A stretch of 32,000 nt of DNA from Candidatus Heimdallarchaeota archaeon (GCA_030149205.1 JASBSB010000004.1:90001-122000); one strand, 5' to 3'; counted from the first letter of the stretch, positions 3,421 through 29,396 are shown. Notes: generated by a model not told the origin, from the letters alone. Numbers and translations are program-made.

Positions 3421-3944
3421 ATTGAGATTCTGCAAAGGGCATATAAGAAGATTATCAGAGTCAATCGGATTGCAAGCAATTGATGGAATAAATCGCTTAT
3501 TGCATATTTCGTATAAATATAGAGATGGTAAGATGCAAGAAAGGTAAAGAATGTGAGTAAGATATTAATAGATAGAAAAGGTGACAATATTAATTGCCAG
3601 ACAGAAAACCCCAACTTTAAGTATTAGACCTCCGTAGTTAATTTCGCTTTTGGGATGGATATCCGGAATTATTAGATTTCTCTTTAAATTTCAAAATTTC
3701 GTTCTTAAAACTCAGTTTGCGACATCTAAAATTTTTTTTATTCATTGATTTTAAATTTTAGAGTGTTGAAAATAATCTCTGTCAATCTAGATTCGGGAGG
3801 TTAGGCATGTTTTTGATAGTCTCTATAGACTATAGTAATCTATAACAATATGGACTCAGATAGCTTACTTCCCTTTTATCAAGATACTAAATTTTTATTT
3901 ATAGTACTAAAAGATTATAATTTATTCTTGACAATCATTAATAT

Positions 3945-4067
3945 ATGCAGGAAAAACCATCAGTTTATGAAATGGGACTAATAAAGTACCTGTATTGTAT
4001 CTCTTTGACTGAGTACCACTTCCTCAATACATATCTATGGGCAGATGCTCAAACTAAGGTGACCTGA
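3945..4067 (+). CDS. Possible 40-aa small ORF (MQEKPSVYEMGLIKYLYCISLTEYHFLNTYLWADAQTKVT), not in the ORF track
   Basis: The ATG at 3945 lies 24 nt after TTATAA (3915-3920). The TGA ends 1 nt before the TTG of the next gene. Confidence 0.3.
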   Translation: MQEKPSVYEMGLIKYLYCISLTEYHFLNTYLWADAQTKVT

Positions 4068-4068
4068 T

Positions 4069-4596
4069 TTGAGTATTGGTCAAATTGCGGGAATAATCTA
4101 TTTTACATTTTGGTCTGTGTTTGTCTTCTACCTCTTAACCTATGTAAAATTCCAATTGTCCAGCCTTTTCAGACTTCAAGACACGAGGTCTTTCCTAGAA
4201 TCATATTTAACTTTAAAACGAAGAAATGGTAGATCTTTTGCTTATATCAACTTTTCTGCAAATCTGCTATTTGGGTTTATAGGTTTTTTTATACTATTTG
4301 GAAGAATCATTGAGCTATTTTACAACCTCTATTATTACATTCTGATGTTTGGGGTGACAGTGATTTCACTCATGGCTGTTGAAAGCAGACTTCCCTTAAG
4401 CGCAGACACTCGTGAATATATCATGAGTCAACGTGTTCCTGTAATCTCCCTTTTCTCCCTTTTTTTCACCAGGAATGGTGAAAAGTTAAAATACAGGGCG
4501 GATGTATGGAAGCTCATTCCAATCAAAGAATTAATTGGGTATTATAGCCTTGCAATTTTAGGGTTAATTTTTTATCAATTGTTTTATATCCCTTGA
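4069..4596 (+). CDS. Multi-pass membrane protein, candidate orphan immunity protein
   Basis: 175 aa with about 4 hydrophobic helices. It is preceded by AGGTGACCT (4057-4065), the same SD-containing 9-mer at the same spacing as before the 5902 gene. Confidence 0.65.
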   Translation: MSIGQIAGIIYFTFWSVFVFYLLTYVKFQLSSLFRLQDTRSFLESYLTLKRRNGRSFAYINFSANLLFGFIGFFILFGRIIELFYNLYYYILMFGVTVISLMAVESRLPLSADTREYIMSQRVPVISLFSLFFTRNGEKLKYRADVWKLIPIKELIGYYSLAILGLIFYQLFYIP

Positions 4597-4652
4597 GGAA
4601 AGTTGATTTTTATCTAGATTCATCATACGGGGATGGGGGGAAAAAAAAAATT

Positions 4653-4778
4653 ATTCTGGTAAAAAATGTTATAGTTCAGACATACAGGGTGGCTTACAAG
4701 TAGTTTTTGAGACTTAGGATAATAAAGAAAGATAAGATTTTTTGTTAAGATATGATTTTTGTGCGATAAACTTAAATG
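4653..4778 (+). repeat. Copy 1 of a 126-bp direct repeat ending at the ATG of the 4776 gene
   Basis: Aligns without gaps to 7634-7759, with 15 mismatches counted by hand (111/126). Confidence 0.95.
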
Positions 4779-5891
4779 AGATTGATAGATAACAGATATG
4801 TGTATCTTTGCCTTCATCAGGATTCATTTACAATTAATACAGGTTACAAATACGCTATTTACATCTATTCTCAGACCATCAAGGACGGCGTCACCGTAGA
4901 TGGGGTGAAAGCAGCCGGGGAGTTCATCGCCACCAACATCATCAGACCCATAGTGGAGGGCTTGGCAACCGTGTTTCGAAGCATCCTCACCGCTATGTTT
5001 CTCACACTTGGTGAGACCTCGTCAGGATACCAGACGACGAAAACAGCCACTGGATTTATCTTTAAATCATTTATTGACAATAAGGAGGTAAGTGTATCAG
5101 TGACTGTGGACAGCTCAAATCAACTAATGTTTACTGTTGGTATCAAATCATTCACTATAGATTTGTTTAAGCTCATATTAAATTCAATAATACCTTTTGA
5201 AACCCTTTCTCCCGAAAGTGCGATTAATGGTATAATAACAGCCACAGTTTTCGAGAACATTTTTACAAATATCGCATTTGTTGCTATGGATAAATCTAAA
5301 GAAGCTGGTGCCGGATCAATGGGAATAGGAGCGGCGGTTGCCTTAACAATTTCATTAATGTCAATGTTATATGGTTCAGCAACATTTTTAGGAAATTTTT
5401 TAGCTCGATGGCACAATAGAAATAAATTCAGTGGAGAGGAATTAAAACAATATGATCATCTATTTAAGTCATGGATTTCTTTATATAAGGTTACACTCAC
5501 ACTCTCAATAACCTTATATTATTTGGGTAGAAATTTATATAAACTCCGCAACATTATGAAACAGGAAGGCCAAACTTTGACTTCAAGTATTTCTAAAGTT
5601 TTAAAAGAAAACTTTGAAATTCAAGGCTACACAAGTCCTGCAATTGCGTCAGGTTTATTTTTTGTAGCATTAAGTACAATAGTTATGGATTTTACGGAAG
5701 TCATATTACTTCAACCAACAATGACGATGTGGATAGCTTTCTTAATCGTATTAGCTTCAGAAATAACTACATACGGTCTTCTTGATTTGGGGAAAACTCC
5801 TCTGTATAACTTAAAAATTTTTATATCTGCAATTGTATTTCCAAATACCTTATATAGGTTAGAGTTACTTATTTTGGATAATTTTGTATAG
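4776..5891 (+). CDS. Cassette protein A: shared N-terminal module plus hydrophobic variable C-terminus (candidate polymorphic membrane toxin)
   Basis: 371 aa. The N-terminus RYVYLCLHQ...QTIKDGVTVDGVKAAGEFI is shared with the 7757 and 8935 ORFs. Several hydrophobic, Gly/Ala-rich helices follow. Confidence 0.75.
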   Translation: MRLIDNRYVYLCLHQDSFTINTGYKYAIYIYSQTIKDGVTVDGVKAAGEFIATNIIRPIVEGLATVFRSILTAMFLTLGETSSGYQTTKTATGFIFKSFIDNKEVSVSVTVDSSNQLMFTVGIKSFTIDLFKLILNSIIPFETLSPESAINGIITATVFENIFTNIAFVAMDKSKEAGAGSMGIGAAVALTISLMSMLYGSATFLGNFLARWHNRNKFSGEELKQYDHLFKSWISLYKVTLTLSITLYYLGRNLYKLRNIMKQEGQTLTSSISKVLKENFEIQGYTSPAIASGLFFVALSTIVMDFTEVILLQPTMTMWIAFLIVLASEITTYGLLDLGKTPLYNLKIFISAIVFPNTLYRLELLILDNFV

Positions 5892-5901
5892 GTGACCTAT
5901 T

Positions 5902-6714
5902 ATGAAACTTATTTCAATTCTTGGTTTAAATTTTTTCCTAAGACAATCCTTAGTTTTAACTCTGCTAAGTTTTTTGATCTTTACTCATTTCATAGCTTAT
6001 CCAGTTAAAATTTACTATTTTTACGAAATTTTAACATTTTCGGGTATCTATTTAATGAGTGTAATGTTTTCAATTATTGGTCAATACCAACTCAAAGATA
6101 CTAACCATGGAATAATTTTTGTTAATAAAGAAAGGTGGAAAGTCTTGACACCTATGATGATTTTTTGGTTTGTTTTAATATTTAATGTGTTTTCAAACAT
6201 GATGTATCAGGCAAATACAATATTCCGACACCTTTTTGCTATAATGACTTTTTTTTTACTATTGCATTATTTTGAAACCGTCATTGAAGGGTCACTATAT
6301 CCTCAGTTAATTAAAGAAAGCAGATCCAAATCAGCAACAAAAGTTAACCGTTTCTTGTTCTTATTGAGGTTCTCACTAATTTTTACTATATTTGCATTGA
6401 TTCTTACAAAAAATTCTATTGAGATTCTCCTTATTATTACTACTGTATTATTTGGGGGTTCACTGGTGTCAAGTGCCTTGTTTAACTTAAAAACAAAGTC
6501 CTCCTTAAAAATAACTATCGAGGTGATTCATGCAATTTTCCTCATGGACTTCCTTCTAGTTTTTATCGATTACCTGATTAGTCCTGATTCTAATATATTT
6601 ATATTGGGATTAACTTTTCTTCAGTTGATATTTATATATTTATTAAGTGAACTTCCATACTTATATCAAGTTCCTCAATTGATTTTACAATCATTCATAA
6701 TAAATGATAAATGA
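5902..6714 (+). CDS. Multi-pass membrane protein (candidate immunity partner of A)
   Basis: 270 aa, about 7-8 TM helices, very AT-rich. It starts 10 nt after the stop of A, with a GGTGA SD. Confidence 0.75.
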   Translation: MKLISILGLNFFLRQSLVLTLLSFLIFTHFIAYPVKIYYFYEILTFSGIYLMSVMFSIIGQYQLKDTNHGIIFVNKERWKVLTPMMIFWFVLIFNVFSNMMYQANTIFRHLFAIMTFFLLLHYFETVIEGSLYPQLIKESRSKSATKVNRFLFLLRFSLIFTIFALILTKNSIEILLIITTVLFGGSLVSSALFNLKTKSSLKITIEVIHAIFLMDFLLVFIDYLISPDSNIFILGLTFLQLIFIYLLSELPYLYQVPQLILQSFIINDK

Positions 6715-6925
6715 GGGTGGCATCCTAGCAATACTCTTGACTCTGACACCTTATGTTGGATCACTTGCATATCTCATCTCAGAGGCAGTGGGTTCTGCTG
6801 GTTTAACGGCATTAAAGGCAATCTATAAAACATATCAGATGGGAACTGTATTAATGGTAGCAAGTATAACACATCTGATACTTGCCTCTCTCTTTGCTTT
6901 AAAAGGTGGGAATAGGTTCTTGTGA
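6704..6925 (+). CDS. 73-aa hydrophobic ORF, candidate orphan C-terminal tip (cassette B)
   Basis: It overlaps the previous stop, and its TGA overlaps the next GTG (GTGA coupling). It has two hydrophobic Gly/Ala-rich helices. Confidence 0.5.
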   Translation: MINEGGILAILLTLTPYVGSLAYLISEAVGSAGLTALKAIYKTYQMGTVLMVASITHLILASLFALKGGNRFL

Positions 6926-7545
6926 ATAGGCTGGTGAATAACATGAAGCTTAAAAATAGATTTAAACTGGATGATGCTGTATATTTGATCACACTTCTAT
7001 CAGTCCTTATCTTGCTTTATTCTCGCTTGATTGATAAAATAGGACTTATCGTAACAGCTCTAGCAGTGTTCCTTTATCCCCAGCGTTTCTTTGTGATAGC
7101 TATTTATCAACTATTCAGGGAACATAGAACCAAAAAATTAGTCTATAACCTTTTGGGACTAATACTAATTTTTTCTGCCCTATCACTCTTACTAACTATT
7201 TCTGTTAAAACAAACTCGTTTTTGATCTTAACCCTCACATTCTGTAGTTTTTATGTCCTAAAGGCAATTTTTTTCTACAGGGTTTATGATAGAGACCTCA
7301 AAGATAGGAAATACCGTAAAACAGTTACAGGGGCGGTATTCAGGGTATCCACACCGTATTATTTTCTTGTGTTCTTTTTAGTAGCAGTGATTCTTCAGCC
7401 TGTGAGTCCTTTAGATCCCAGTGGATTCACATTTTTGATGCTTGTAATGGTCATTTCAATTTTCTTTAATGGCTTCTGTAATTGCGATGATATCGATCAT
7501 GAACTAAAGAGCATTTGGCCAAAAGGTATCCCAACTTGTTGTTAG
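6922..7545 (+). CDS. Multi-pass membrane protein (candidate immunity partner of B)
   Basis: 207 aa with about 6 TM helices and basic loops. It is coupled to the 73-aa ORF. Confidence 0.7.
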   Translation: MNRLVNNMKLKNRFKLDDAVYLITLLSVLILLYSRLIDKIGLIVTALAVFLYPQRFFVIAIYQLFREHRTKKLVYNLLGLILIFSALSLLLTISVKTNSFLILTLTFCSFYVLKAIFFYRVYDRDLKDRKYRKTVTGAVFRVSTPYYFLVFFLVAVILQPVSPLDPSGFTFLMLVMVISIFFNGFCNCDDIDHELKSIWPKGIPTCC

Positions 7546-7633
7546 GCAAGCTGTATATGTACGTTGAAAAATATTAATTTCTATAACCGATGTATGATTA
7601 GGGTCGAAGAAGTAAATTGATGTGATAACATTA

Positions 7634-7759
7634 ATTCTGGTAAGAAATGTTATAGTTCAGACATACAGAGTGAATTACAAGTAGTTTTTGAGATTGAGGA
7701 TAATAAAGCAAGATTAGAAGCTATGTTAAGAGATAAATTTTGTGCGATAAACTTAAATG
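7634..7759 (+). repeat. Copy 2 of the 126-bp direct repeat, ending at the ATG of the 7757 gene
   Basis: Offset 2981 from copy 1. Similarity resumes in the coding region at tatgtgta..ttgccttcatcagga. Confidence 0.95.
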
Positions 7760-8131
7760 GTTTTAATGTATATCAGGTATGTGTACCCTTGCCTTCATCA
7801 GGAATCTTATGAAACTGGAACACACAGCGACTTCATTGTCAGGTCTATCAACCAACAGACCATCAGGGACGGCGTCACAGTCTACGAGGTGAGGTATGCT
7901 GGAGAGTTTATCGTCAACATACCCATGCCTATTGCAGAAGAAATGATGAATGTGTATCGCTCAGCAATACTTGGTCTGCTACAGATTGTTGAAACAATAA
8001 TTTCAGTAAGTGTGACTGTGGATTCCTCAGGGAATATCTTGATTCAGTCTAATACATACATGATGTTTTACACATTTTACCATGTTGTTTTAGCAGTGGT
8101 ATATGCTTTGATAGAAAACCAACCATTTTAG
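7757..8131 (+). CDS. Cassette protein C: short, internally deleted paralog of A
   Basis: 124 aa. It shares RYVYxCLHQ, QTIxDGVTV, AGEFI and SVSVTVDSS with A. It lacks about 20 aa between these blocks and nearly all of the C-terminal region. Confidence 0.7.
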   Translation: MVLMYIRYVYPCLHQESYETGTHSDFIVRSINQQTIRDGVTVYEVRYAGEFIVNIPMPIAEEMMNVYRSAILGLLQIVETIISVSVTVDSSGNILIQSNTYMMFYTFYHVVLAVVYALIENQPF

Positions 8132-8136
8132 GGGGC

Positions 8137-8880
8137 ATGTATATGAAAGACTCACTTCAGTACTACTTAGAGAACATAATCATAATTGGGTCTCTTCTAA
8201 CAGTACTTTTAGTATACAGTTTGACTTGGACATTATTCTATGCAATAAGGCATGATAAAGTAATAGCCTTGATTTTACAGGGGATTCTCATTCTAATGTG
8301 GTGGATTCTCTCTAATTTCTTTAACTTCTTTGTTTTTTACACACTCGTTGAGCTGCCAAACCGAATTCTACTAAAAACCAGCGTTCTGTTATTGTTTCTG
8401 CTTTATCCATGCGAGTACCTACTTTTCAATAGCTATCCAGACTCGATCAACACTTACACTGTTTATCTTGCATTATTTGGTCCATTCCTAATTGCAATTA
8501 TTGCCATCTACAAAGTGGTTAAAGTTAGAAACAATTTGCAAACCAGATTGGAAAAGAGGCAAGGGTTATATCACTCCACTTTTTTAGCGTTATATTTTTT
8601 ACTTATGAATCTATTTCTTACTTCAGGGTGGAGGTTGCAAAATGAAAAACTAAGTATCTATCTATCATTTGAAACCGTTTGGTATTTAGAATTTATAGGA
8701 GTAATAATCGTTCTGCTGCTCAACGTCTTGCTCTTCCCAAATACGAAACTTGACATTAATGGTGTCCCTATCTTAAAAGGGTTCGTGTTTCAACTCTCTT
8801 CTGATTCAGATGAGGACAATCACTCACCTCCCAAAAATGATGAGGTTCAGACAAGTCAAAGTAATTTTGACCTTGGTTAG
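8137..8880 (+). CDS. Multi-pass membrane protein (candidate immunity partner of C)
   Basis: 247 aa with about 6 TM helices and an acidic tail. It starts 5 nt after the stop of C. Confidence 0.75.
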   Translation: MYMKDSLQYYLENIIIIGSLLTVLLVYSLTWTLFYAIRHDKVIALILQGILILMWWILSNFFNFFVFYTLVELPNRILLKTSVLLLFLLYPCEYLLFNSYPDSINTYTVYLALFGPFLIAIIAIYKVVKVRNNLQTRLEKRQGLYHSTFLALYFLLMNLFLTSGWRLQNEKLSIYLSFETVWYLEFIGVIIVLLLNVLLFPNTKLDINGVPILKGFVFQLSSDSDEDNHSPPKNDEVQTSQSNFDLG

Positions 8881-8934
8881 TGTTTAACTTTCAAGGTTCA
8901 GCTGTGGTTTCAAAAAACAAGAGAAATCTTTAAT

Positions 8935-10047
8935 TTGAAAGCATTGAATAATAGCTATGTGTACACCTGTGTTCATCAGCAAGAATTTGTGTTAGGGTAT
9001 TCAACACAATACAATTTCAATCAAACTGGATTTCAATATACCAATAACGGCATCACCAACTTCGTCGACGGGATCAAGGCTGCGGGGGAGTTCATCGTCA
9101 ACACAGTATTGACAGCCCTGATTGATATGACCATCTTTGTGATCAAGAACATCATAGATGGACTTGTTGAGGTCGTGAAAAACCTGTTGCCCACTCTTCC
9201 CATATCTAAGACTCCCTCAGGTTACAAGATAGGGTCAGTTGCCATTGATATCTTCCGGGAGGGATTAGAGCTAAAGCTGAGGGTTGATAGGATGACCTTA
9301 AACTTCGGGACATTTTACTTTGGTGCACCGATAGATGTCGAGACATTGGGGATAGAGAACCCCAACTGGTTGATCCTAGGGCTATCAGCCCTGCAGACCG
9401 TGTCAATCCCATTGATCATGGTCTTGGATGCAACCGGTAGAAAGGATGCCTCTAACACTGCAATGATTGCCAGTCTTGTCCTGTTCTCCCTGGGCATTCT
9501 CCTGAATAGTTATGTGGTCTTGAGCAACAACTCCTTGGATAAACAGACCAGAAAGGATTTTTCAAAAGGATTAGGCTTGTTTTTAATCTTTGGAATTATA
9601 ATCCCTGATATCTTCATCTTTGGAACAAACTCAAAAAATCCTCGACATAAAGGAAGAACTATAAGTGAAAATATTAAATCTATTGGTTTTCCAGCAACAT
9701 TTTTAGGTACTCTGTTTAGAAATTTGAATGCTGCGTATTCTTCAATTTGGGTTTCCTTAGGTTTTGCTCTTTGGGATTTCTTTAACAGTATCATATTAGA
9801 TTCTGAAAAAAATCTTGAAAAACGATTTGAGGAAATTATCATTTTAATTCTTAATTTAGTAATTGTTTCTTCAACATTTTTACCAGCTATAAATAGAGCA
9901 ATTCAGAAATCAACAGAGATCCCAGGGAGTAAATTTGGGTCACTTAGAGGGATGAATAAGGTTCATCAGTATGTAAAATTCCAACTTATTATTTCATTCA
10001 TATTGATTTTGGTGCTTACCCTCATGGAGTCTTGGTTAATAAAATAA
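8935..10047 (+). CDS. Cassette protein D: shared N-terminal module plus a different hydrophobic C-terminus
   Basis: 370 aa with SYVYTCVHQ...FVDGIKAAGEFIVN. The C-terminal region shows no obvious similarity to that of A. The start is TTG and the frame stays open back to 8881. Confidence 0.75.
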   Translation: MKALNNSYVYTCVHQQEFVLGYSTQYNFNQTGFQYTNNGITNFVDGIKAAGEFIVNTVLTALIDMTIFVIKNIIDGLVEVVKNLLPTLPISKTPSGYKIGSVAIDIFREGLELKLRVDRMTLNFGTFYFGAPIDVETLGIENPNWLILGLSALQTVSIPLIMVLDATGRKDASNTAMIASLVLFSLGILLNSYVVLSNNSLDKQTRKDFSKGLGLFLIFGIIIPDIFIFGTNSKNPRHKGRTISENIKSIGFPATFLGTLFRNLNAAYSSIWVSLGFALWDFFNSIILDSEKNLEKRFEEIIILILNLVIVSSTFLPAINRAIQKSTEIPGSKFGSLRGMNKVHQYVKFQLIISFILILVLTLMESWLIK

Positions 10048-10066
10048 ACACCTAGGAGTGACTAGA

Positions 10067-10780
10067 ATGCGAAGTGAAAAGGTAATTATATTTTTAGACG
10101 AGTTTGTTAGTTCTTTGCTGGTTATAATCGAGATTGTGATCCTTTTATTTCTGGTGTATTTTCACAGACCTTTTATAATTGTATTTGGGAGCTATTTTGT
10201 TTTTAAATCAATATTTGTTTTACTGTTGTTCAAATTTATTTTTTCACATAAATCATGGTTAGTAGAACAGGGGGTCATTCATTCCGTCTTTATAGATGCG
10301 GTTTTTCCAGTTATTTTATTAGTTTCCCAGTTTGTCTTATTTGTATTTTATATGAATTATATGCTTAATACTGGGATCTATTTACTGATTAACGTGATAA
10401 TCGTAATACTTGGATCGAATTATTCTAAAATAAACCCAACAATGTTTTACTTTTACCTCTCAACAACGAATCCTATTGAATATCTTAGAGAATATAGAAT
10501 TGATACAAAAATAGATTATATGATCATCTTACGTGCAAGTCTTCTTTCTTTGATAGCGTTTTCGGCAATTGTGAGTTTGATTGCCGTAAATTCAAATTTC
10601 AAGTGGATTCAAGTCAATACAATTTTTGAATTCATTGCTTCACTAGGGATATTCTTCTTACCCATACAAAATTATCGAGATCGGCTCATAAATCAAAGAT
10701 ATTACAAACTGATGAAAAAGCTAAGTAAAGGTGAGGAACCAGTGGAGTTTTGGAGAGCAAGGTGGAGGTTGCGGGGTTAA
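10067..10780 (+). CDS. Multi-pass membrane protein (candidate immunity partner of D)
   Basis: About 238 aa with about 6 TM helices. The ATG at 10067 follows SD-like AGGAGTGA. The track uses GTG 10058. Confidence 0.75.
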   Translation: MRSEKVIIFLDEFVSSLLVIIEIVILLFLVYFHRPFIIVFGSYFVFKSIFVLLLFKFIFSHKSWLVEQGVIHSVFIDAVFPVILLVSQFVLFVFYMNYMLNTGIYLLINVIIVILGSNYSKINPTMFYFYLSTTNPIEYLREYRIDTKIDYMIILRASLLSLIAFSAIVSLIAVNSNFKWIQVNTIFEFIASLGIFFLPIQNYRDRLINQRYYKLMKKLSKGEEPVEFWRARWRLRG

Positions 10781-11057: not shown

Positions 11058-11336
11058 TTAGCTGTCAATCTTATTCAGCAGTTCCTGAAGAGCCTGCTTG
11101 ACCTCTGGGCTAATTTTCTTGGGATCAATGCTTTTGACCAGTTTCTCCAATCCCACTGTGTCAACCACCTTCTCCAGTCCCACTGCATCAATCAGTTTCA
11201 GTCTCACTGCATCAACCACCCTGTTGATCCCAACCTCCTCGATCACACGCTCCAGCCCCACCTCATTGATCACCCAAGCCACGCCTAAGAACTCTACTGC
11301 CTCCTTGATACTGATTGATTCGGGGTCTGTTGACAT
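11058..11336 (-). CDS. Small protein made of 9-aa repeats (approximately xxVGLEKVV), possibly the remnant C-terminus of a longer gene
   Basis: Units: EFLGVAWVI/NEVGLERVI/EEVGINRVV/DAVRLK-LI/DAVGLEKVV/DTVGLEKLV. The ORF is visibly more GC-rich than its flanks. Confidence 0.7.
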   Translation of the reverse strand: MSTDPESISIKEAVEFLGVAWVINEVGLERVIEEVGINRVVDAVRLKLIDAVGLEKVVDTVGLEKLVKSIDPKKISPEVKQALQELLNKIDS

Positions 11337-12839: not shown

Positions 12840-14792
12840 GTGTTGAGCTTTATTGAGAAAAGATTGAGGAATACCTCAAGACAGGGATTGGTTATCCTTT
12901 TATTTTTGATTATAACTCTGAGTTTAGGGGGAGGTGGGTTATTAATTGGTTTCTGGCTCGGGTCCAACTCAAGAAACAAGACAGATACAGGTCAGATAAA
13001 GATTGGGATAGTAGATTCGGGATGTGATACATCTCAATCTACACAGGTGAAGGTATATGAGGCCTTTACCAACAGAACTTATTTTTATTCACCATCTGAT
13101 AACTACACTTATGATTTTTTGAATCATGGCTCATTTGTTTGTGAAATCATAATCCAAGAGACATCGAATCAGTTGATCTATTCAGCAAAGGTGGCATCAT
13201 TGTTCGGGCAGATCACATTTGCTGGGTTGTATGGGGCAATTAAATGGTTGGTTGAGATTGTGGGGGTTGACATTGTAAACCTTTCCTTAGGGGCTCTGCC
13301 AACTCAGTCACCTAGATTAGTTGATGTTTTTAGGAACTATACTGAGCACTATGGGACTATTTTTGTGTTTTCAACGGGGAATGATGCCAACACTCAGCTT
13401 TCAAGTATTGGGAAGGGTCAGTGGCCAGCTCTGCTTCCATGGACTGTTGGGGTTGGCGCAAGTAAATCAAATCCGTTTATCTTTGCTTCTTATTCTGACT
13501 GGGGAAGGACACTTTATGGTTCATATGTTGCAGATTTTACAGCAGATGGTTACTTTGCCCTGAGTTACAATAATGCAAAGGAGGGTACCTCATTTGCGGT
13601 TCCCAGAGTCACTGCAATGTTAGCCAACCTTATGCAGGCATTCAAAACAAGGGGATTAGCGATCACTCCCTCGACAATACAAACCTTTGCGGTGTTGATG
13701 TCTACAGGTTATTCGACTCATCATTTTGATCAGCGGTTGGGTTGGGGGACACCAGTATTTCCTGATAAGGTCACTCTGGATAATATAATCTCTATATATA
13801 AACATAGGGACACACAGTTCATTTACGGGACAAATGAAACTGAACGAATCACCAGATTTTTGGGAGAGAATTTTACGATCTCTTGGAAAGTCACTCAAAA
13901 TCTGTTAGCAGATTCAATCCAAAGTCTTCCTGACATCTCAGGGAATGGTAGTGTAATGTCACAATTAAGGTACAAAGATTCAGGAAATTGGGGGAAAATT
14001 CTTCAGATGAGGGTTGAAATTCCTAAAAATACTACATTGGGGAATTATACAAATACAATAAGAATGCCAGGGGGTTCACACCTGGATTATACTTATGTGG
14101 TTAACGGATCATATACAAAGAAAGTTCTAATAGATAACTCATTAAGTGTTAACGGGTACAATCATCAATTTGGTCAGTTATTGTTTTTAAACATGAAACT
14201 GAGGTCTGATAATATTTTGCCAGAATTTACCTTCACTAAATCTAACCTCAGTAAGTATTCTGATGTGGTCTTGTTGGAACCATATAGTGCAGATTTCACC
14301 AAGGAGGAGGGATTTTTCATGAATGCAACAGCAAATGATGCGCAGAGGTACTTTGATTTCCTTAAAGCTGGCGGTAAATTAGTGACTCTTTTAGGCGAGG
14401 AAAATCAGCTTCCAAAAGAATTTTTAAGACCATTGTTGGAACCATTAGGGTTAAATGCGAGCTATAATCTACCTTCAATCACAGATAACAAAATAGTGAT
14501 AGTTAATACCTTTGCAAATTTTGACTTTAGCAAGGGTACAAGGGGAGTGTATGGGAATGGTGTAGCATTAAACATAACAAATTCAACGATGGTTACCCCG
14601 TTTGCGACATATTTAGACAGTTATACAGACCTAGCAGGAATTCACAGCAGAAAGATTGTTTTTGGGGGTAATGGGACATTTGGTCTTGGTACATTTTATG
14701 TGTATTCAGGTTATGTTGGTCTGACTAACCCGAGGATTGACCCTGCTCAGGGTGACTCCTATAAATTATTCTTAAAGATTATTTTGAAGTAG
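12840..14792 (+). CDS. S8 (subtilase) serine protease with an N-terminal membrane anchor and a C-terminal GIFT/DUF4350-like domain
   Basis: Catalytic motifs are GIVDSG (D), LNHGSFV (H), STGND (oxyanion N) and GTSFAVP (S). The N-terminus has a TM segment. The C-terminal pattern is KVLIDNS...YSDVVLLEP...FLKAGGKLVTL. Confidence 0.88.
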   Translation: MLSFIEKRLRNTSRQGLVILLFLIITLSLGGGGLLIGFWLGSNSRNKTDTGQIKIGIVDSGCDTSQSTQVKVYEAFTNRTYFYSPSDNYTYDFLNHGSFVCEIIIQETSNQLIYSAKVASLFGQITFAGLYGAIKWLVEIVGVDIVNLSLGALPTQSPRLVDVFRNYTEHYGTIFVFSTGNDANTQLSSIGKGQWPALLPWTVGVGASKSNPFIFASYSDWGRTLYGSYVADFTADGYFALSYNNAKEGTSFAVPRVTAMLANLMQAFKTRGLAITPSTIQTFAVLMSTGYSTHHFDQRLGWGTPVFPDKVTLDNIISIYKHRDTQFIYGTNETERITRFLGENFTISWKVTQNLLADSIQSLPDISGNGSVMSQLRYKDSGNWGKILQMRVEIPKNTTLGNYTNTIRMPGGSHLDYTYVVNGSYTKKVLIDNSLSVNGYNHQFGQLLFLNMKLRSDNILPEFTFTKSNLSKYSDVVLLEPYSADFTKEEGFFMNATANDAQRYFDFLKAGGKLVTLLGEENQLPKEFLRPLLEPLGLNASYNLPSITDNKIVIVNTFANFDFSKGTRGVYGNGVALNITNSTMVTPFATYLDSYTDLAGIHSRKIVFGGNGTFGLGTFYVYSGYVGLTNPRIDPAQGDSYKLFLKIILK

Positions 14793-17025: not shown

Positions 17026-18804
17026 GTGTTTATAAAATCTGAATCAATACAGTTTGAGGAGACCTACTCAGACAAGGATTCAGAATCATTATTTATTGCA
17101 GAGTTACGTCTAACAGAAGTGATTAACTCGAATTATCTCAACAAATTTGCAACGTTTAATTATTATCAAGGGACGGATATAGTCAAGGAGATAATTCTTC
17201 ACCAGGAACTACAACACCTTCCAGATTCAATTGCTGAATTTAAATACCTCAAGTCATTGAAACTGGAGTTCCCTGTTGACAAGCTTTCAGAAAAATTAGC
17301 TGATCTCAACTATTTCGAGGAAATATATCTTTACAAACCTAGAATCGTTCCTATGGACAAGAACTATCGGTTACCCAAAAACATTAGTGATATCCCCCTG
17401 AAAATTTTAAATCTAAACGTTCCCAACCTGATAAATGGGTTTCATGGAGGAACCTTAGAAAAGTTAAAAATTTTGAAGCTTAATCAATTTAACCGGGTAA
17501 AGTTTGAAGATATAGATACAGAGTTTATTGAACCACTTAAAAGTTTGAAATCATTACATATTTTAGCAAACCGAAGTGTAGATGATAGAGAACAAGACTT
17601 AATTTCAATCTTTTCAGGTCTTTCAAATTTGGTAAACCTTCATCTTAATAAGATCGCGATTACAGAATCAGCATTTTCAGCTCTCCCTGAGAAATTAAAA
17701 GAGTTATCAATCAGCAATGCGAAGCTTTCCCTCAGAAACGGAGACCTAAGGAGGCTGAAGAAATTAAAGTCACTAAGATTGGACAAAACCAGGTTAAATA
17801 AACTTCCAGAAGAGTTTTTCTCTGGATTAAATCTGACTGTTTTAAATCTTTCAGAGAACTATTTTGAGCTATTGCCGGAATCTATATTTGATTTACAAAA
17901 TTTATTTTATCTGACCTTTCAGAAGAATCAAATCACAAAATTAACCTTCCAGATAAGTGAACTTTCTTATCTTCAATATCTGGACTTATCACATAATCAT
18001 TTATACAAATTACCCACAAAAAAGATCTTTCTCCCTAATTTAAAGTATTTGAATCTCTCTTACAATCATATTGCCAGATTTGATGAAGATAATTTTGATG
18101 TTCCTTCACTCGCTGTACTTAATCTTAGAAATAATATGATAAAATATATCAACTTTAATTTTAATTATAGTAATCTCAGGCAACTAAATCTCAGTGACAA
18201 CAATATTCATAACTTTGGTTCAGGTTTTAAGCATCTAAGCAACTTAGAGAAGCTGTATGCTACATGGAACAACATAGTTGTTTTCCCAGAGGAGATTTTC
18301 TATCCAAATTTGAAGGAGATTGATTTAAGCTATAACTATTTGAAAAAGTTCCCAATTGCATTAACAAAATCAGAAAAATTGCATACTTTGAGATTAGATT
18401 CAAATCATATTAAGGAATTTACAGATGAGCTATGTAATTTAAAGGGGTTAAAACATATTAATGCCTCTTACAATTATATTCGGAAGTTACCTAATTGCCT
18501 TTCAGGCTTTACAGAGTTAAAGACTCTGAACTTAAAGAATAATCAGTTGACTGGATTGCCGCTCTCCCTATTTGACCTAAAGAAGCTTGAAGTTTTGGAT
18601 CTGGAAATGAACCTTCTTAGAACCTTAGATTCAAAAATCAGCAACCTTGAAAGGTTGAATGTTGTTAATTTAAGTGATAACCTTTTAGAAACACTTCCCA
18701 AATCAATAACTGAATTGAAGAACTTAAATCTGATATATGTTGAGAATAATCCCTTAAGGTCTGTTCATGAATCTCTTAAAAAATTGCTCTCATCAAATTA
18801 TTGA
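17026..18804 (+). CDS. Leucine-rich repeat protein
   Basis: Roughly twenty LxxLxLxxN repeats, for example LQYLDLSHNHLYKLP and LEVLDLEMNLLRTLD. No TM segment or recognisable effector domain. Confidence 0.92.
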   Translation: MFIKSESIQFEETYSDKDSESLFIAELRLTEVINSNYLNKFATFNYYQGTDIVKEIILHQELQHLPDSIAEFKYLKSLKLEFPVDKLSEKLADLNYFEEIYLYKPRIVPMDKNYRLPKNISDIPLKILNLNVPNLINGFHGGTLEKLKILKLNQFNRVKFEDIDTEFIEPLKSLKSLHILANRSVDDREQDLISIFSGLSNLVNLHLNKIAITESAFSALPEKLKELSISNAKLSLRNGDLRRLKKLKSLRLDKTRLNKLPEEFFSGLNLTVLNLSENYFELLPESIFDLQNLFYLTFQKNQITKLTFQISELSYLQYLDLSHNHLYKLPTKKIFLPNLKYLNLSYNHIARFDEDNFDVPSLAVLNLRNNMIKYINFNFNYSNLRQLNLSDNNIHNFGSGFKHLSNLEKLYATWNNIVVFPEEIFYPNLKEIDLSYNYLKKFPIALTKSEKLHTLRLDSNHIKEFTDELCNLKGLKHINASYNYIRKLPNCLSGFTELKTLNLKNNQLTGLPLSLFDLKKLEVLDLEMNLLRTLDSKISNLERLNVVNLSDNLLETLPKSITELKNLNLIYVENNPLRSVHESLKKLLSSNY

Positions 18805-18886: not shown

Positions 18887-19906
18887 ATGTTAACAGGGGT
18901 GCGATTTGTGAAAAACTATTTATTGATGTCATTGATACTGGTGTTGCTCATCTCAAATGCATCCACTAGTTTTGCTCAGTCGTCTCAGATTTTGGTTGTT
19001 GGCACCACATCTGTAGTAACTGATATAGTTAGGAACATCTTACCCCAGAATTTTAAGGTAGAAAGCCTAATGGGGTTAGGACAGGATCCACATGAGTTTC
19101 AACCCACTCTTCGTAGTGCAGAGTTACTAAATCAAGCGTCAAATGTGGTTTATCTGGGAAACGGAATTGAAGAAACACTTTCAAATGCGTTAGCTGCCAA
19201 ATCTAGTCAAGGTAAGGCAATAGAAATGCTGCAAGGTGTTTCTAACTCTTCAAGGATATTTGAAGGCGGTGGATTAAATCCTCATTTTTGGATGGATCCA
19301 GTTATTATTTCCAAAGTGGTTGAATACATTGCTGGAAAATTTATAGAACTTTACCCACAGTTCAACTTATCAATTTCTACATTAAAGAAAAATTATATTA
19401 ACGACCTAAATGCAACAAATGCATTTTTACTTTCAGAATTTTCATCGATTGCGCAGTCTGAAAGGTATATTGTTACTCCTCATGACTCCCTGGTGTATTT
19501 TGGTCACAGATATAATTTCACAACCATCTCACTGGAGGGTTTTAGCACCCAAGCTCAGGTAGGACTAAATGAATTCACTGGGTTAGCGAAATTTATTAAG
19601 GAACATAAGATCAAAAGTATATTTTCAGAGACTACTCTTCCATATAATCGGGTTAAAGCCATACAGGAAGCAGTAATTAATCTAAATTGGTCGGTCTCAA
19701 TAGGGGGTTCATTATATGTTGGTTCATTGGGAGATTCTCAGGCTAAGTCTTACATTTCAATGTTAAAGTACGATGGCAATTTAATAACGACTGGATTGAC
19801 AAAACCTGTAACCATAAATCAAAATTTAGATCTATACCCTGTGGGGTACTTTCTGGTCAGTATACTTACATTAGTTTTATTCAGGAGGAAATATTATGCA
19901 AGATAA
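18887..19906 (+). CDS. troA: Mn/Zn/Fe ABC transporter substrate-binding protein (TroA/MntA family) with a C-terminal membrane anchor
   Basis: His ligand motifs are DPHEFQP, NPHFWMDP and TPHDSLVYFG. It has a signal peptide and a C-terminal TM plus RRK. The true start may be GTG 18908 or later. Confidence 0.88.
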   Translation: MLTGVRFVKNYLLMSLILVLLISNASTSFAQSSQILVVGTTSVVTDIVRNILPQNFKVESLMGLGQDPHEFQPTLRSAELLNQASNVVYLGNGIEETLSNALAAKSSQGKAIEMLQGVSNSSRIFEGGGLNPHFWMDPVIISKVVEYIAGKFIELYPQFNLSISTLKKNYINDLNATNAFLLSEFSSIAQSERYIVTPHDSLVYFGHRYNFTTISLEGFSTQAQVGLNEFTGLAKFIKEHKIKSIFSETTLPYNRVKAIQEAVINLNWSVSIGGSLYVGSLGDSQAKSYISMLKYDGNLITTGLTKPVTINQNLDLYPVGYFLVSILTLVLFRRKYYAR

Positions 19907-20711
19907 TCAAAAAATCATAAGCGATCAAGATATTAAAATACACAATCTAACTGTTGTATACCGAGGTATTCCGGTTTTATGGGAGATAAATAGTGTAATA
20001 AAGAAAGGGATGCTCACCGCAATTGTGGGTCCAAACGGAGCAGGTAAATCTACCCTGTTACAAACACTCTTAGGCCTTAAAAAACCTAGAACTGGTTCGA
20101 TTAAACTGGGAGATCAGAATTTAATTAAAATGAAGGATAAAGGTAAATACATTTCTTACGTCCCTCAAAGAGAATCTATTGATTGGGATTTTCCAATTTC
20201 ATGTATTGATGTTGTCAAGATGCCATTAACAGCAAAACTCAGTGGATTTAAAAGAACTCCAAAAGAGTATGATGATCTGGCATTAGAGTATCTTGAGAAA
20301 TTTGAGATGGCTCTGTTTAAAGATAGACAAATTGGTAAGCTTTCTGGAGGACAAAGACAGAGGATCTTCTTAGCACGGTCACTGATACAAAATACGGAGT
20401 ATCTAATATTAGATGAACCTTTTGGAGGAATAGATGCAAAAACCGAAAGAATGACTTTGGAATTACTTACAGAGTTAAAAGAGAAAGGTAAGACAATAGT
20501 GGTTGTCACACACGATTTGAGTTCCATATCTAAATACTTTGATGAAGTGATTTTGCTGAATACACAAGTTGTGGCTCAAGGAAAACCAGAGGCTGTCCTT
20601 ACAAAGGAAAATCTTAAGGTCGCCTATGGAAGTTTTCTACATCTTCAGACTGAGATGAAAAACGAAAGCAATGATCATCATCCCAGTCATCATTCGGAGG
20701 GAAGTCACTGA
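19896..20711 (+). CDS. troB: Metal ABC transporter ATP-binding protein
   Basis: Walker A GPNGAGKS, signature LSGGQRQR, Walker B LILDEP, H-loop VTHD and YVPQRESIDWDFP. Confidence 0.92.
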   Translation: MQDNQKIISDQDIKIHNLTVVYRGIPVLWEINSVIKKGMLTAIVGPNGAGKSTLLQTLLGLKKPRTGSIKLGDQNLIKMKDKGKYISYVPQRESIDWDFPISCIDVVKMPLTAKLSGFKRTPKEYDDLALEYLEKFEMALFKDRQIGKLSGGQRQRIFLARSLIQNTEYLILDEPFGGIDAKTERMTLELLTELKEKGKTIVVVTHDLSSISKYFDEVILLNTQVVAQGKPEAVLTKENLKVAYGSFLHLQTEMKNESNDHHPSHHSEGSH

Positions 20712-21850
20712 TGGTGAGTTGGTTAATATCAGTGCTTAACACCTTAGGTATATCATTTACTCTAGCAGTAATTCTTACAGGAACAATATTAATAAGTGCC
20801 ACGGCAGGTTTTTTGAGTAATTTTTTGGTTATTCAGAAACAAAGTGTTTTAGGTGATGCATTGGCACATTCTTCATTACCGGGGGTTGTTCTTGCCTTTC
20901 TTTTATTTCAGACTAAGGATATCTTTACTCTTATGGTCTTTGCCCTGGTTTTCGGTTTGTTAAGTTCAATATTAATCAATGTGATTACAGATGTAACTCC
21001 ATTAAAAGGAGATGCTGCTATAGCCATCTCCCTCTCATTCTTTTTTTCAATCGGAGTTACTTTGTTTTCTTATGTCCAACAGCTTCAAATCGCGTCTCAG
21101 GCAGGGCTAAGTGAATTTATTTTTGGAAGTCTCACCTATCTCACTTATTCGGATCTGATTCAATACTTAGGGTACTTCATTCTCATTCTTTTCATACTGT
21201 TCGTCTACAAGCAGCAGTTTAAGACAGTATTGTTTGACCGAGAACTTTCTAAAATATTAGGCTTGAACATCCTTTGGTTTGATTTTTTAAGCTATTTTAT
21301 TATCACATTAACAGTGATACTTGGCCTACAGTTGATAGGAATTGTTTTGATTGCTGGTTTGCTTGTTATCCCAAGTATAGGTGCAAGAAGATGGACTGAC
21401 AACTATTCTAAGTTATTTTTTATTTCTAGTCTTCTAAGTGTAATAGCCGGAGTTACAGGTGTGTTAATTAGCGTGGTTTACAGAGGTGTTCCACCTGGCC
21501 CAATAATTATTTTAAGCCTAACCATTCTAACTATCATCTCAATCATCTTTGGTACAAGAAATGGCTTGCTAACTGACTATCTCCATGTAAATCTATTCCA
21601 TAGAAGAATGAATCATGATGAGAAGTTAACCCTCTTGATCAATTCCTTAAAGCCCGAAATCCAAAAGTCTGGTCTAAAGGTTTTCGAGTTCAACAAGGGA
21701 GATTTTCCCGAAATAACAGACGAATTGCTAGAGGCCCTTTCTGATTGTGGTTATTGCAAGATGGTATCACCCGAAAAATGTGTGTTAACCTATGATGGGG
21801 TTAAAAAAACACAAACCTTGATCACTAAAGGAGAGTTGACTAATGATTAA
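20711..21850 (+). CDS. troC: Metal ABC transporter permease with a C-terminal winged-helix-like extension
   Basis: ABC-3 motifs GDALAHSSLPG, FIFGS and LFDRELS. There is an extra soluble tail of about 90 aa. Confidence 0.88.
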   Translation: MVSWLISVLNTLGISFTLAVILTGTILISATAGFLSNFLVIQKQSVLGDALAHSSLPGVVLAFLLFQTKDIFTLMVFALVFGLLSSILINVITDVTPLKGDAAIAISLSFFFSIGVTLFSYVQQLQIASQAGLSEFIFGSLTYLTYSDLIQYLGYFILILFILFVYKQQFKTVLFDRELSKILGLNILWFDFLSYFIITLTVILGLQLIGIVLIAGLLVIPSIGARRWTDNYSKLFFISSLLSVIAGVTGVLISVVYRGVPPGPIIILSLTILTIISIIFGTRNGLLTDYLHVNLFHRRMNHDEKLTLLINSLKPEIQKSGLKVFEFNKGDFPEITDELLEALSDCGYCKMVSPEKCVLTYDGVKKTQTLITKGELTND

Positions 21851-22715
21851 TGTTTTGTTGGACATCTTCATATTGCTCGTCTTGGTAGCCATCACAAATT
21901 CTCTACTTGGAGGGATACTCTTACTCAGGGGAAATACTTTGATAACTTTTGCATTAGCACATTCCATTGTTTTTGGTTTAATTGCGACCTTCATAATAAC
22001 GGGATCAGACAACATATTGGTCTTATTTTTTGGAGCTATGATTTCAGGAGTATTAGTCGCATTACTGGTTGAGTTATTTGATCAGGTCGAATTAATTAAT
22101 GTAGATGCTGCTCTCGGAATAACCTATCTCTCAATATTTTCTCTTGGACTTATTCTGTATTCACTATATGGGGCTCATCAGTTGTTTAGTCCAAACTCAA
22201 TAGTAACAGGGAGCATAGTTTTGACACCTTTTAACAGGCTAGTGTTAAATGGCATAGATATCGGTCCTGTTTTGACTTGGGTTCTCCTTCCCGTATCAAT
22301 ACTTACTTTGATATTTTATTTAAATTTCAGGAGGAAAATAGAAATAAGCATGTTTGATCCAACTTTAAGTAAGTTAATGGGAATCTCAGCATTCCAGATT
22401 AACCTAATGGTAACAACATTGGTCAGCCTTGCAACAGTAATCACCTTCAAGGTTGCAGGGATTATTGTGGTTGTTGCGTTTTTTGTCATCCCTGGTGCTG
22501 TAGCTTATTTGTTTTCAAATAACTTTTCAAGAATTTTAATATCTGCAGTGTTTATAGCAGTTTTATCAACTTTAATTGGACTGATTTTTATCTCAAATTA
22601 CACTACCGTGGAACCTGCAAGTATAAACGCAATTATTCTTGGTGTGATTTTTATATTTGCACTGTTTGTTTCCCCGAAAAGTAAATATTCAGATATTTGG
22701 AGAGAGACAAATTGA
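21843..22715 (+). CDS. troD: Metal ABC transporter permease (second subunit)
   Basis: ALAHSIVFG, SMFDPTLS and FFVIPGAVA. The start overlaps the previous gene. Confidence 0.88.
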   Translation: MINVLLDIFILLVLVAITNSLLGGILLLRGNTLITFALAHSIVFGLIATFIITGSDNILVLFFGAMISGVLVALLVELFDQVELINVDAALGITYLSIFSLGLILYSLYGAHQLFSPNSIVTGSIVLTPFNRLVLNGIDIGPVLTWVLLPVSILTLIFYLNFRRKIEISMFDPTLSKLMGISAFQINLMVTTLVSLATVITFKVAGIIVVVAFFVIPGAVAYLFSNNFSRILISAVFIAVLSTLIGLIFISNYTTVEPASINAIILGVIFIFALFVSPKSKYSDIWRETN

Positions 22716-23164
22716 ATAAACCAATTTATTCATTGGATCTTACAAGATCTGAAAAGGAGATTTTTCTTTTTCTCATCTCATCTAATTATCATTCAAAAAA
22801 CTACCTACTTACTTCAAAACATATTGGGGATCAGTTAAATGTCACACGACCACGTGCACACAATATTCTCAAGGGATTAGAGGTAAAATCCATCGTAAAA
22901 AATATCGAGCGAAAGGGTTTTGTCTTGACAAATCATGGAATTGCAGTACTTGAGGAATTCATTCATCGTTTAAAGATTTTTGAGATGTATCTGATCAGGG
23001 TTTTAGAGATTGATGTTCAAACTGCGCAACAAGATTCTATTGCTGCAGGAATGTATCTTAGTCATGATACCATTGACAGGATGTGTGATTTGTTAGAACG
23101 TCCGAAAACGTGTATTCATTCCATCTCTATTCCACATCACATACGAATTGAAACTAGTCCATAA
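22697..23164 (+). CDS. troR: DtxR/MntR-family metal-dependent transcriptional regulator
   Basis: It has an N-terminal wHTH (LNVTRPRAHNILKGL...FVLTNHG), HRLKIFEMYL and a C-terminal RPKTCIH. It is last in the troABCD order. Confidence 0.8.
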   Translation: MERDKLNKPIYSLDLTRSEKEIFLFLISSNYHSKNYLLTSKHIGDQLNVTRPRAHNILKGLEVKSIVKNIERKGFVLTNHGIAVLEEFIHRLKIFEMYLIRVLEIDVQTAQQDSIAAGMYLSHDTIDRMCDLLERPKTCIHSISIPHHIRIETSP

Positions 23165-29300: not shown

Positions 29301-29396
29301 CTTCCCTTTAATTTTCTACCTTTTGTAATTACATTAATTGGGATATTTCCCTTGATACAAAAGTATCGTAAAAAACTGAAACGTTCTGAATCATAA
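26361..29396 (+). CDS. Large secreted, membrane-anchored S8 protease (prodomain, S8, Ig-like linker, GIFT/DUF4350-like domain, beta domains, C-terminal TM)
   Basis: Catalytic motifs are GIIDNG, YNHGTPVSG, SAGNGG and GTSFSSP. Also present are KPDVVAPG, MGFDLRH...FDIVWIPDP...YVSSGGNLLI, a signal peptide and a C-terminal S/T-linker-TM-basic tail. Confidence 0.92.
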   Translation: MLKARALVIFFGLTMLFLLQPISGVQAQVITPKNLPSTPHHFTVQNSPVNIQSLKASEYLIFLPNQEEFNGILSMFHVKQSYSNLRAVIVDLTTNQYNMAKSLYGSHIYETSKVGNFYAPKTVKTNPSDIVTTGLDTLKLMSVDKLYSLGYNGSGINVGIIDNGVNINHPALKGKITTQVQVGTGTLSYNHGTPVSGMIVADGSVDSKAYGTAVNASIYSVAMVETSAGSFTLPTVLAGMNRMLAFNKTVHIVNMSVGGGGNVFNDILKVFNSVNMLVVASAGNGGPGSTETKGPVGFPAGTIDAVAVGATDLTKKIAGFSSRGPTSSSIILKPDVVAPGELVYSTTRTGFGAVSGTSFSSPATAGALATLASALNAKGYVWNIGTLKAALIRGAEGTDGGNYNTGMGFVNIYNSYTYLMNQNSASTVARALAVTPTNYKLFRTNYFSEITTQIHGYTLITSHPNETSFSISGNLSSVLSVSSSQINNSLFSQEIPLTLNSIGASIAAYSGTLKVSLGTQSISIPITLHITGKAKAIMGFDLRHTDWDNIGADTLTGSNTGNMVNLAYDKGIWVETFNTPITSSLLSKFDIVWIPDPVDGTYDAKFPYTGANFLPSEITSLENYVSSGGNLLITFNGYFQSQGVTTGTNATAINQLIGKFGVNTFNNLTFASDVHVGVTANNFTSLTKGVGTLSQFGNFMSLDPSVAAAKNAALYPLTGDYSKTQYAAFDQIGGGRVIISDNNFWTDNGGSSGDPKYPSGDKILASNAYDWFLAKDKIIPLNMKVENRNIKLTVGAFSGGSPVSNLNAVRLHVGAIPKETLPMTSLGAGKFSLDYKATLDGIHVIQVANSAGEYVRLSTLLDLLPPQISTNLKNETYVDPGLQYIKFEFNITDSTYQVKGNDITIILDGNVQNRTEATRIVNGKQLIIVISVQNLDPNKKLHTLKIEAKDMSNNIGTFILIFQRGIAPSTTSTSKAAGGFLPFNFLPFVITLIGIFPLIQKYRKKLKRSES

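Follow-up and report, generated by a model that had tools for sequence, protein, structure and literature searches.

The 32,000-nucleotide (nt) stretch analyzed here, which we call the window, is C1:90001-122000 of a 3.3-Mb Candidatus Heimdallarchaeota genome in 12 contigs. It carries an array of membrane-protein cassettes, in which a gene with a conserved module and a hypervariable hydrophobic tail is followed closely by a small multi-pass membrane gene, its partner. As far as the genes themselves can tell, the giant secreted parent, the conserved junction, the variable C-terminus, the adjacent gene and the arrays of truncated cassettes fit the architecture of a polymorphic toxin system. We give about an even chance to the reading that tails and partners form a cognate specificity system for conflict or self-recognition; within it, a toxin/immunity function is tentative, and non-lethal recognition is doubtful. 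The first-pass annotation of the window had already proposed a polymorphic toxin/immunity locus, and the architecture it described stands, whereas recognizable trafficking, pre-toxin and toxin domains were not found. We describe an unannotated family whose genes bear all the genomic marks of a cognate two-protein system under diversification and are linked to giant surface proteins with lectin domains.

All nine predicted open reading frames (ORFs) of the array are real and lie on the plus strand; each is named here by its first nucleotide. Cassette 1 has the full-length family gene 4776 (4776-5891, 371 amino acids (aa)), made up of a leader with YVYxCxHQ (about residues 1-40), an alpha/beta module (about residues 41-141), an ETLS junction (residues 142-145, nt 5199-5210) and a hydrophobic tail that we call type A (residues 146-371). 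Its partner, 5902 (5902-6714, 270 aa, about eight transmembrane (TM) segments), begins 10 nt past it. Cassette 3 is built alike: 8935 (8935-10047, 370 aa) has leader and module before an ETLG junction (residues 136-139, nt 9340-9351) and a second tail type after it, and partner 10058 (10058-10780, 240 aa, 5 TM) again begins 10 nt downstream. In cassette 2 the family gene 7757 (7757-8131, 124 aa) is truncated. It consists of leader, module helix and a short hydrophobic end, lacks the ETLG junction and the long tail, and corresponds in sequence to the first ~116 aa of the 313-aa C1:23644; its partner 8137 (8137-8880, 247 aa, 5 TM) begins 5 nt past it. The predicted membrane gene downstream of each family gene is thus in place. 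The partner-type genes are not all unique, as 8137, 10058 and 4069 have paralogs in another array.

Three further ORFs follow the same pattern. The two-helix, 73-aa ORF 6704 (6704-6925) overlaps 5902 by 11 nt and is coupled, as had been noted, to a 207-aa membrane gene of partner type with 6 TM (6922-7545) through a 4-nt overlap; a search of the genome found no paralog of 6922. ORF 6704 is probably a remnant of the C-terminal end of a tail, to judge from a terminal hydrophobic-His helix read from its translation and a weak match (E 9e-4) to the C-terminal end of C1:29727. At the head of the array stands another partner-type gene, 4069 (4069-4596, 175 aa, 3 predicted TM), with no adjacent family gene upstream of it in the window. 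Its paralog C1:40698-41240 is likewise placed ahead of a family gene, and the DNA upstream of the two (3940-4062 and C1:41369-41247) is 83% identical.

A complete family protein of these cassettes has its parts in the order leader (M..RYVYxCxHQ.SF), module, a near-invariant ETL[GS], tail. The common N-terminal part predicted for 4776, 7757 and 8935 is borne out, with 4776 and 8935 matching by BLASTP over residues 1-103 (E 8e-14) and YVYxCxHQ and AGEFI invariant in all three. A model of the module built from 72 homologs (predicted local distance difference test, pLDDT, 82; predicted template-modeling score, pTM, 0.67; core >90) has a 41-residue helix packed against a five-stranded antiparallel sheet. 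The best Foldseek matches of this model had E 0.65 in the PDB and 0.075 in the clustered AlphaFold database, and its best VIA-align matches were to frataxin-like alpha/beta sandwiches at Z 5.7, which lies in that tool's range for common arrangements. A pilin-like reading of the long helix and sheet was dropped, the pilin matches having Z ~4 at a root-mean-square deviation of ~7 Å. The full-length model of 4776 was poor outside the module (pLDDT 57) and was left out of the fold searches.

These proteins belong to no family that we could recognize. None of the window array proteins had a significant Pfam (E up to 1), NCBIfam, PHROG or PADLOC match, a profile search of PDB sequences gave chance-level matches only, and a full-text search of the literature found no description of the family. 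Two sub-threshold matches, of 6922 to UbiA (19.6 bits against a cut-off of 34.2) and of 6704 to holins (12.7 bits against 25.4), were disregarded. A match to a known transporter or structural family, which would have counted against the first-pass proposal, did not turn up in library, PDB and fold searches.

An 18-nt start element, GTGCGATAAACTTAAATG, stands upstream of nearly every family copy, with the start codon at its end and an in-frame TAA just ahead. The genome has 11 occurrences at ≤2 mismatches, and all are cassette starts. Because they have this element, the cassettes are separate genes with their own start signal and not silent fragments. In cassette 1 the element (4761-4778, start codon included) ends a conserved upstream region on the plus strand (4646-4778) that is 86% identical to C1:17457-17297 and 75% identical to window 7634-7919; the corresponding region of cassette 2 is 7634-7759 (+), with the element at 7742-7759. 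Some copies have a further ~120 nt upstream of the element in common. The leader is lineage-specific: it is YVYxCxHQ in the window genome and MGFRIRxVDxLY in other genera, which show the same headless organization.

The tails are of uniform size and hypervariable sequence. A tail is typically ~200 aa and multi-pass; among full-module homologs it extends 180-260 aa past the junction and has 3-6 hydrophobic segments. The tails of 4776 and 8935 are unrelated, as the first-pass annotation had it, with no BLAST similarity and a profile-profile probability of 0.1%. The type-A tail of 4776 is similar only to those of C1:34330 and C1:55481 and the fragment C1:32931, and the 8935 tail is ~24% identical to those of P0093 and P0143 from other metagenomes. 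Altogether 87 tails fall into ~60 similarity clusters, so the expectation that homologs would lack a conserved C-terminus was correct. Neither jackhmmer, run with reversed and membrane-protein decoys, nor hhalign united the tails. Even when two modules were 40-69% identical, tail similarity was detectable in only 13 of 132 pairs. Conversely, 26639 and P0083 match better in the tail (E 3e-17) than in the module (E 0.002), and such pairs indicate mosaic histories.

Some features of composition recur among the tails. A hydrophobic-His-hydrophobic helix lies 10-24 residues from the C-terminus in 29 of 87 tails and in 4 of 86 membrane controls, and the tails that have it include those of three giant proteins with complete tails (P0075, P0037 and P0080, described below) as well as C1:30930 and C1:44578. 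The tails are indeed rich in Gly and Ala, which come to 14%; the figure is 6.8% for partners and 11.5% for the genome's other membrane proteins. Per 100 aa, tails have 2.1 small-xxx-small motifs, which serve helix packing, as against 0.28 for partners and 0.99 for the other membrane proteins (p 3e-5, 5e-4).

Partners are multi-pass proteins rich in Phe, Ile, Leu and Tyr and as variable as the tails. Their DNA is AT-rich, as had been observed, with a GC content of 28-35% against 40-43% for the module. In about 13 of the 15 relatives with enough downstream sequence, a hydrophobic ORF lies at -23 to +11 nt of the family gene, as the first-pass annotation had predicted of module matches elsewhere; the position is also kept in two further arrays from relatives and after the giants. 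Intact paralogs of 10058 are present in the genome at C1:18953 and C1:15355, along with two broken fragments, and the 10058 family was not found in 11 other genomes of the host's taxonomic family. Partner families are species-specific, turning over at the species level. The N-terminal NFFLRQ motif of 5902 is common to partners of other type-A tails. Protein-atlas look-ups with the 4776 tail and 5902 returned scores of 0.77-0.84, which is chance level, and co-folding of the 8935 tail with 10058 gave a score of 0.00, which counts neither for nor against binding.

Two near-identical 56-aa ORFs on the plus strand (C1:22052-22222 and C1:46044-46214) lie antisense to broken 10058-type fragments. They are probably artefacts of partner pseudogenes that have stop codons (C1:22125-22280 and C1:46117-46608). 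Rfam and tRNA scans gave no match in the window or in the other array.

The family is larger than the three copies first counted. An iterative search of the genome found ~20 family-derived ORFs, all on contig C1, in two arrays: the main one on the minus strand at about C1:15-57 kb and the smaller window array at C1:94-101 kb. Together the cassette arrays take up ~50 kb of one contig. Two proteins resemble 4776 over its full length, C1:34330 (375 aa) and, with its C-terminal 360 aa, C1:55481 (C1:55481-57325, that is, L021:5484-7325, minus strand), the 614-aa protein that heads the main array. The pair 7757 and 8137 has been copied as a unit, with 80% DNA identity over 928 nt (window 7741-8663 against C1:54311-53393). 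Within this unit, 7757 is 83% identical in amino acids to C1:53924, with a synonymous divergence (dS) of 0.20 and a ratio of nonsynonymous to synonymous divergence (dN/dS) of 0.47, and 8137 differs from its paralog C1:53146-53913 with dS 0.80 and dN/dS 0.38. DNA identity among cassettes stops at sharp breakpoints, and these breakpoints and the lower dS of the family gene than of its partner fit gene conversion at the 5' end. The cassettes are mosaics, recombined at their 5' ends.

Selection maintains these genes, as dN/dS among duplicates is 0.1-0.5, a sign of purifying selection. For the same reason, and because homologs occur in other genomes, the cassette genes are not chance ORFs. Eight or nine copies retain frames of 310-614 aa in DNA of 35% GC. 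In about half of the family copies only a truncated gene or a leader remnant is left, and the partners adjoining them are intact. This is so for 7757, 6704, C1:28754, C1:51260 and C1:17078, and a decayed bare leader remnant lies directly upstream of C1:18953, the intact paralog of 10058. Such asymmetry is expected if the partner is useful alone, as an immunity protein would be, and unexpected for an obligate subunit.

The first-pass annotation had suggested looking for the module near the C-terminus of very large secreted proteins, and full-length parents of this kind were found in relatives. A module profile matched 155 proteins among 1.84 billion representatives, 91 of them with the full module, and in nearly all of these 91 the module ends in ETL[GS] and a tail follows. 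Most short forms are 300-450 aa. Three giants end in the complete module and tail: P0075 (2661 aa, with an N-terminal signal peptide), P0037 (1988 aa) and P0080 (1199 aa). A genome of the same genus (G003) has a giant frame of at least 2524 aa in which the contig ends inside the module, and another genus has one of 1184 aa. With the exception of P0080, which has no Pfam match, the giants carry Laminin_G_3/ConA-like lectin domains; their Pfam scan at E ≤0.01 gave only Laminin_G, Pentaxin and sub-threshold matches. Where the short forms do not open with a lineage-specific leader, they begin at many different places along the conserved region that precedes the module in the giants.

The initial guess of an Asgard host was right, the relatives going under the name Candidatus Heimdallarchaeota archaeon. 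Among 300 genomes across the phylum, the module occurs in 5 of 10 other genomes of the window's taxonomic family and in none of 290 genomes in 29 other families. Wherever it is found it is multi-copy, and tandem pairs occur in genomes of the same genus and of the same family. At three loci (L042 18725-21421, L043 115-1796 and L055 2082-2495), giant and short genes stand beside phage-type integrases. Their neighbors also include small toxin-antitoxin-like genes (PIN, DUF433, MJ0235-like and TumE), and such neighbors in other organisms suggest variable genomic islands.

The strongest alternative is that module and tail do no more than anchor a giant adhesin by several membrane passes, with the downstream gene encoding a dedicated assembly, stabilizing or signaling subunit. 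The arrays would then be headless duplicates, in part decaying and playing no role in conflict, and variability would come from weak constraint on lipid-facing sequence and from the co-drift of two packed membrane proteins. We think this possible, if somewhat doubtful. Surface proteins with a signal peptide end in these tails, which are typical multi-pass segments of uniform length; a third of the tails have the His helix, library scans found no toxin-like domain, and dN/dS values of 0.2-0.5 indicate moderate constraint only. However, over 1000-1700 aa the giants can be aligned with one another (25-39% identity) as far as the module, and in the same protein pairs the tails cannot. A plain anchor should show the opposite. 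In addition, the ~20 headless copies still have uninterrupted frames, as well as a leader and a conserved start element. Partners also persist intact beside truncated family genes and as extra copies, while an obligate subunit should decay alongside the lost protein.

It is improbable, in our estimate, that the cassettes are a cell-autonomous membrane toxin/antitoxin or abortive infection system, in which the headless proteins would act inside the producer and the tail would depolarize the membrane once its partner is lost or inactivated, for example upon virus infection or island loss. The cassettes do have their own start and conserved upstream element and no signal peptide, their pairs are tightly coupled, their tails are rich in small-xxx-small motifs, and the giants' loci elsewhere lie among PIN, DUF433, MJ0235 and integrase genes. 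However, the same module and tail end an extracellular giant adhesin, which points to a role at the cell surface. No PADLOC defense model matched, the remaining window genes are ordinary chromosomal genes, and the module was not found on viral contigs in a scan with one exact peptide pattern, a search of low sensitivity. That the arrays are mostly dead DNA, debris of repeated 3'-end duplication of a lost giant gene, would suit the lack of a giant parent in the window genome, the truncation of about half of the copies and the partner fragments with stop codons, but it is very unlikely given the 8 or 9 long frames kept in AT-rich DNA, the dN/dS of 0.1-0.5, the start element and leader maintained at 11 sites and the same headless organization under another leader in other genera.

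We return to cognate specificity between tail and partner. On this reading, the arrays would have arisen from the C-terminal part of a giant surface protein with Laminin-G domains that is specific to one Heimdallarchaeota family. Each tail may bind its own partner inside the membrane, and a tail without a partner may be harmful, by forming a channel or pore, or may mark the cell as non-self. The arrays would serve as a reserve of alternative pairings of tail and partner, with protective partners in surplus, to be used in conflict or kin discrimination between related archaea, much like bacterial polymorphic toxin/immunity or Ids-type loci.

Several observations weigh against this model. First, no giant parent was found in the window genome. 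Only the 614-aa C1:55481 matches the giants' last ~540 residues, and it is without their first roughly 2000, so this genome appears to have lost its giant parent or to have it unassembled. Second, each headless copy has its own start codon and leader, unlike classic silent orphans. Third, tails would be expected to enter the membrane of the producer itself during translation, as anchors do, which is awkward for a delivered toxin, and we know of no delivery route in archaea for a multi-pass domain. The library scans found no recognizable toxin, immunity, peptidase or secretion domain. Uniform tail length and character, together with the His helix in a third of tails, fit one fast-evolving domain better than a diverse toxin arsenal. 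Finally, homology between 5902 and a cluster of five NFxLRQ partners is not demonstrable (no match by hidden Markov model, hhalign probability 11%), and the partners of P0093 and P0143 have no detectable similarity to 10058 despite the common tail type. Since the partners of 8935-type tails are dissimilar, co-inheritance is shown only for recent duplicates.

It is tempting to speculate that the giants' interchangeable tails pass into the membrane of a touching neighbor, by fusion, protrusion contact or vesicles, and perforate it where the cognate partner is missing. We consider this unlikely. If true, it would be the first archaeal contact-dependent kin discrimination through exchange of integral membrane proteins, and its host lineage would be the one among archaea that is nearest to eukaryotes. 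Models of eukaryote origin give a central place to contact between cells and to the mixing of membranes, and to our knowledge almost nothing is known of how Asgard archaea recognize or fight one another. A toxin/immunity function, if true, would extend the polymorphic-toxin principle to multi-pass membrane domains. If the tails are only anchors, the family would all the same be new, both as a membrane-anchoring module and as an alpha/beta fold family.

The genes surrounding the array are those of an ordinary chromosome, among them EamA and MFS transporters, a P-type ATPase and an SDR. Just past the array, on the opposite strand, a 92-aa ORF (11058-11336, -) is made of repeated VGLE[KR]V-type units. 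A 592-aa leucine-rich repeat protein (17026-18804, +; LRR_8, E 4.5e-41, seven stretches) is encoded in this Asgard host. It is followed by a znuABC-type metal-uptake operon (18887-23164, +) with a ZnuA-type binding protein, an ABC ATPase, two ABC-3 permeases and a DtxR-like repressor. Two subtilase (Peptidase_S8) genes are present on the plus strand, at 12840-14792 (650 aa) and 26361-29396 (1011 aa). The former, with a TM segment at its N-terminus, is found 2 kb downstream of the array; its candidacy as a releasing peptidase was dropped and its position treated as coincidental, because no subtilase adjoins the giants' loci that we examined.

Of the toxin/immunity, Ids and VARTIG systems with which we compared the array, none is homologous to it. 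The 59 partial matches of the module profile are phage tape-measure proteins (P0066, P0088 and P0097 among them), which match at profile positions ~15-70 only, usually in 3-7 repeats each. The matching part is the module helix (…W/V-D-G-[IV]-K-A-A-G-x-F-I…; window 4896-5020 and 9070-9200). Unlike the family described here, these matching tape-measure proteins (PF10145, PhageMin_Tail) have no beta part, ETLG junction or tail, and a Pfam scan found no PF10145 match in the window proteins. The likeness is probably a similarity of helical motifs, not membership.

By analogy, the closest mechanistic counterparts would be membrane-acting toxins with membrane immunity proteins, and IdsD/IdsE of Proteus. 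In CdiA-CT/CdiI of E. coli EC93, the pore-forming colicins with Cai- or Cni-type immunity, and TspA of the S. aureus type VII secretion system (T7SS) with its tandem TsaI genes, a membrane-active C-terminus has a multi-pass immunity neighbor. These toxins are exported soluble or unfolded through type V (T5) or type VII (T7) secretion or Tol/Ton, and have at most one or two hydrophobic hairpins. The window array shares with them a membrane C-terminal region, an adjacent multi-pass gene, tandem extra copies and glycine-zipper-like motifs, and neutralization may be a further parallel. It differs in that its tails have 3-6 TM, and we found no sequence or fold relationship.

IdsD and IdsE of Proteus mirabilis are adjacent membrane proteins whose variable hydrophobic regions must match, are strain-specific and serve recognition, not enzymatic killing. 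They use type VI secretion and form a single pair. Two adjacent membrane proteins with variable hydrophobic regions are common to both cases, and a need for matching may be as well. Unlike Ids, the present family has arrays and a giant adhesin parent, and the two are not homologous.

Among archaea, the nearest counterpart is VARTIG of Thermococcales (Makarova et al. 2021, PMC8416519), a large surface protein with several Ig domains, of which the C-terminal one is hypervariable by recombination, and with variable downstream genes. Here it is a membrane tail that varies, and there an extracellular Ig domain; the Heimdallarchaeota parent has Laminin-G and no Ig domains, and the families are different. 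The authors themselves draw a likeness between VARTIG, whose function is likewise unknown, and polymorphic toxin systems (PMC8416519).

The closest known concept is that of the polymorphic toxin systems defined by Zhang, de Souza, Anantharaman, Iyer and Aravind (2012, Biol Direct 7:18; cited in PMC6393860). Several things set the present family apart. Its cassettes have their own start codon, leader and upstream element, and its host, an Asgard archaeon, has no delivery machinery that is known. Its variable region is always a similar-sized multi-pass domain, where theirs are unrelated enzymes. No known trafficking, pre-toxin, peptidase or toxin domain accompanies it; in particular, Pfam found no TPS/VENN, Rhs/YD, LXG, PT-TG, PT-HINT, DUF4157 or similar domain in the window proteins or in the giants. 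What it has in common with those systems is a large secreted parent with a conserved body (here in relatives only), a conserved junction leading into a hypervariable C-terminal region, a small gene next to it on the downstream side that is alike in position and may, by analogy, be alike in protection, and arrays of 5'-truncated cassettes that have their own downstream genes and show signs of recombination.

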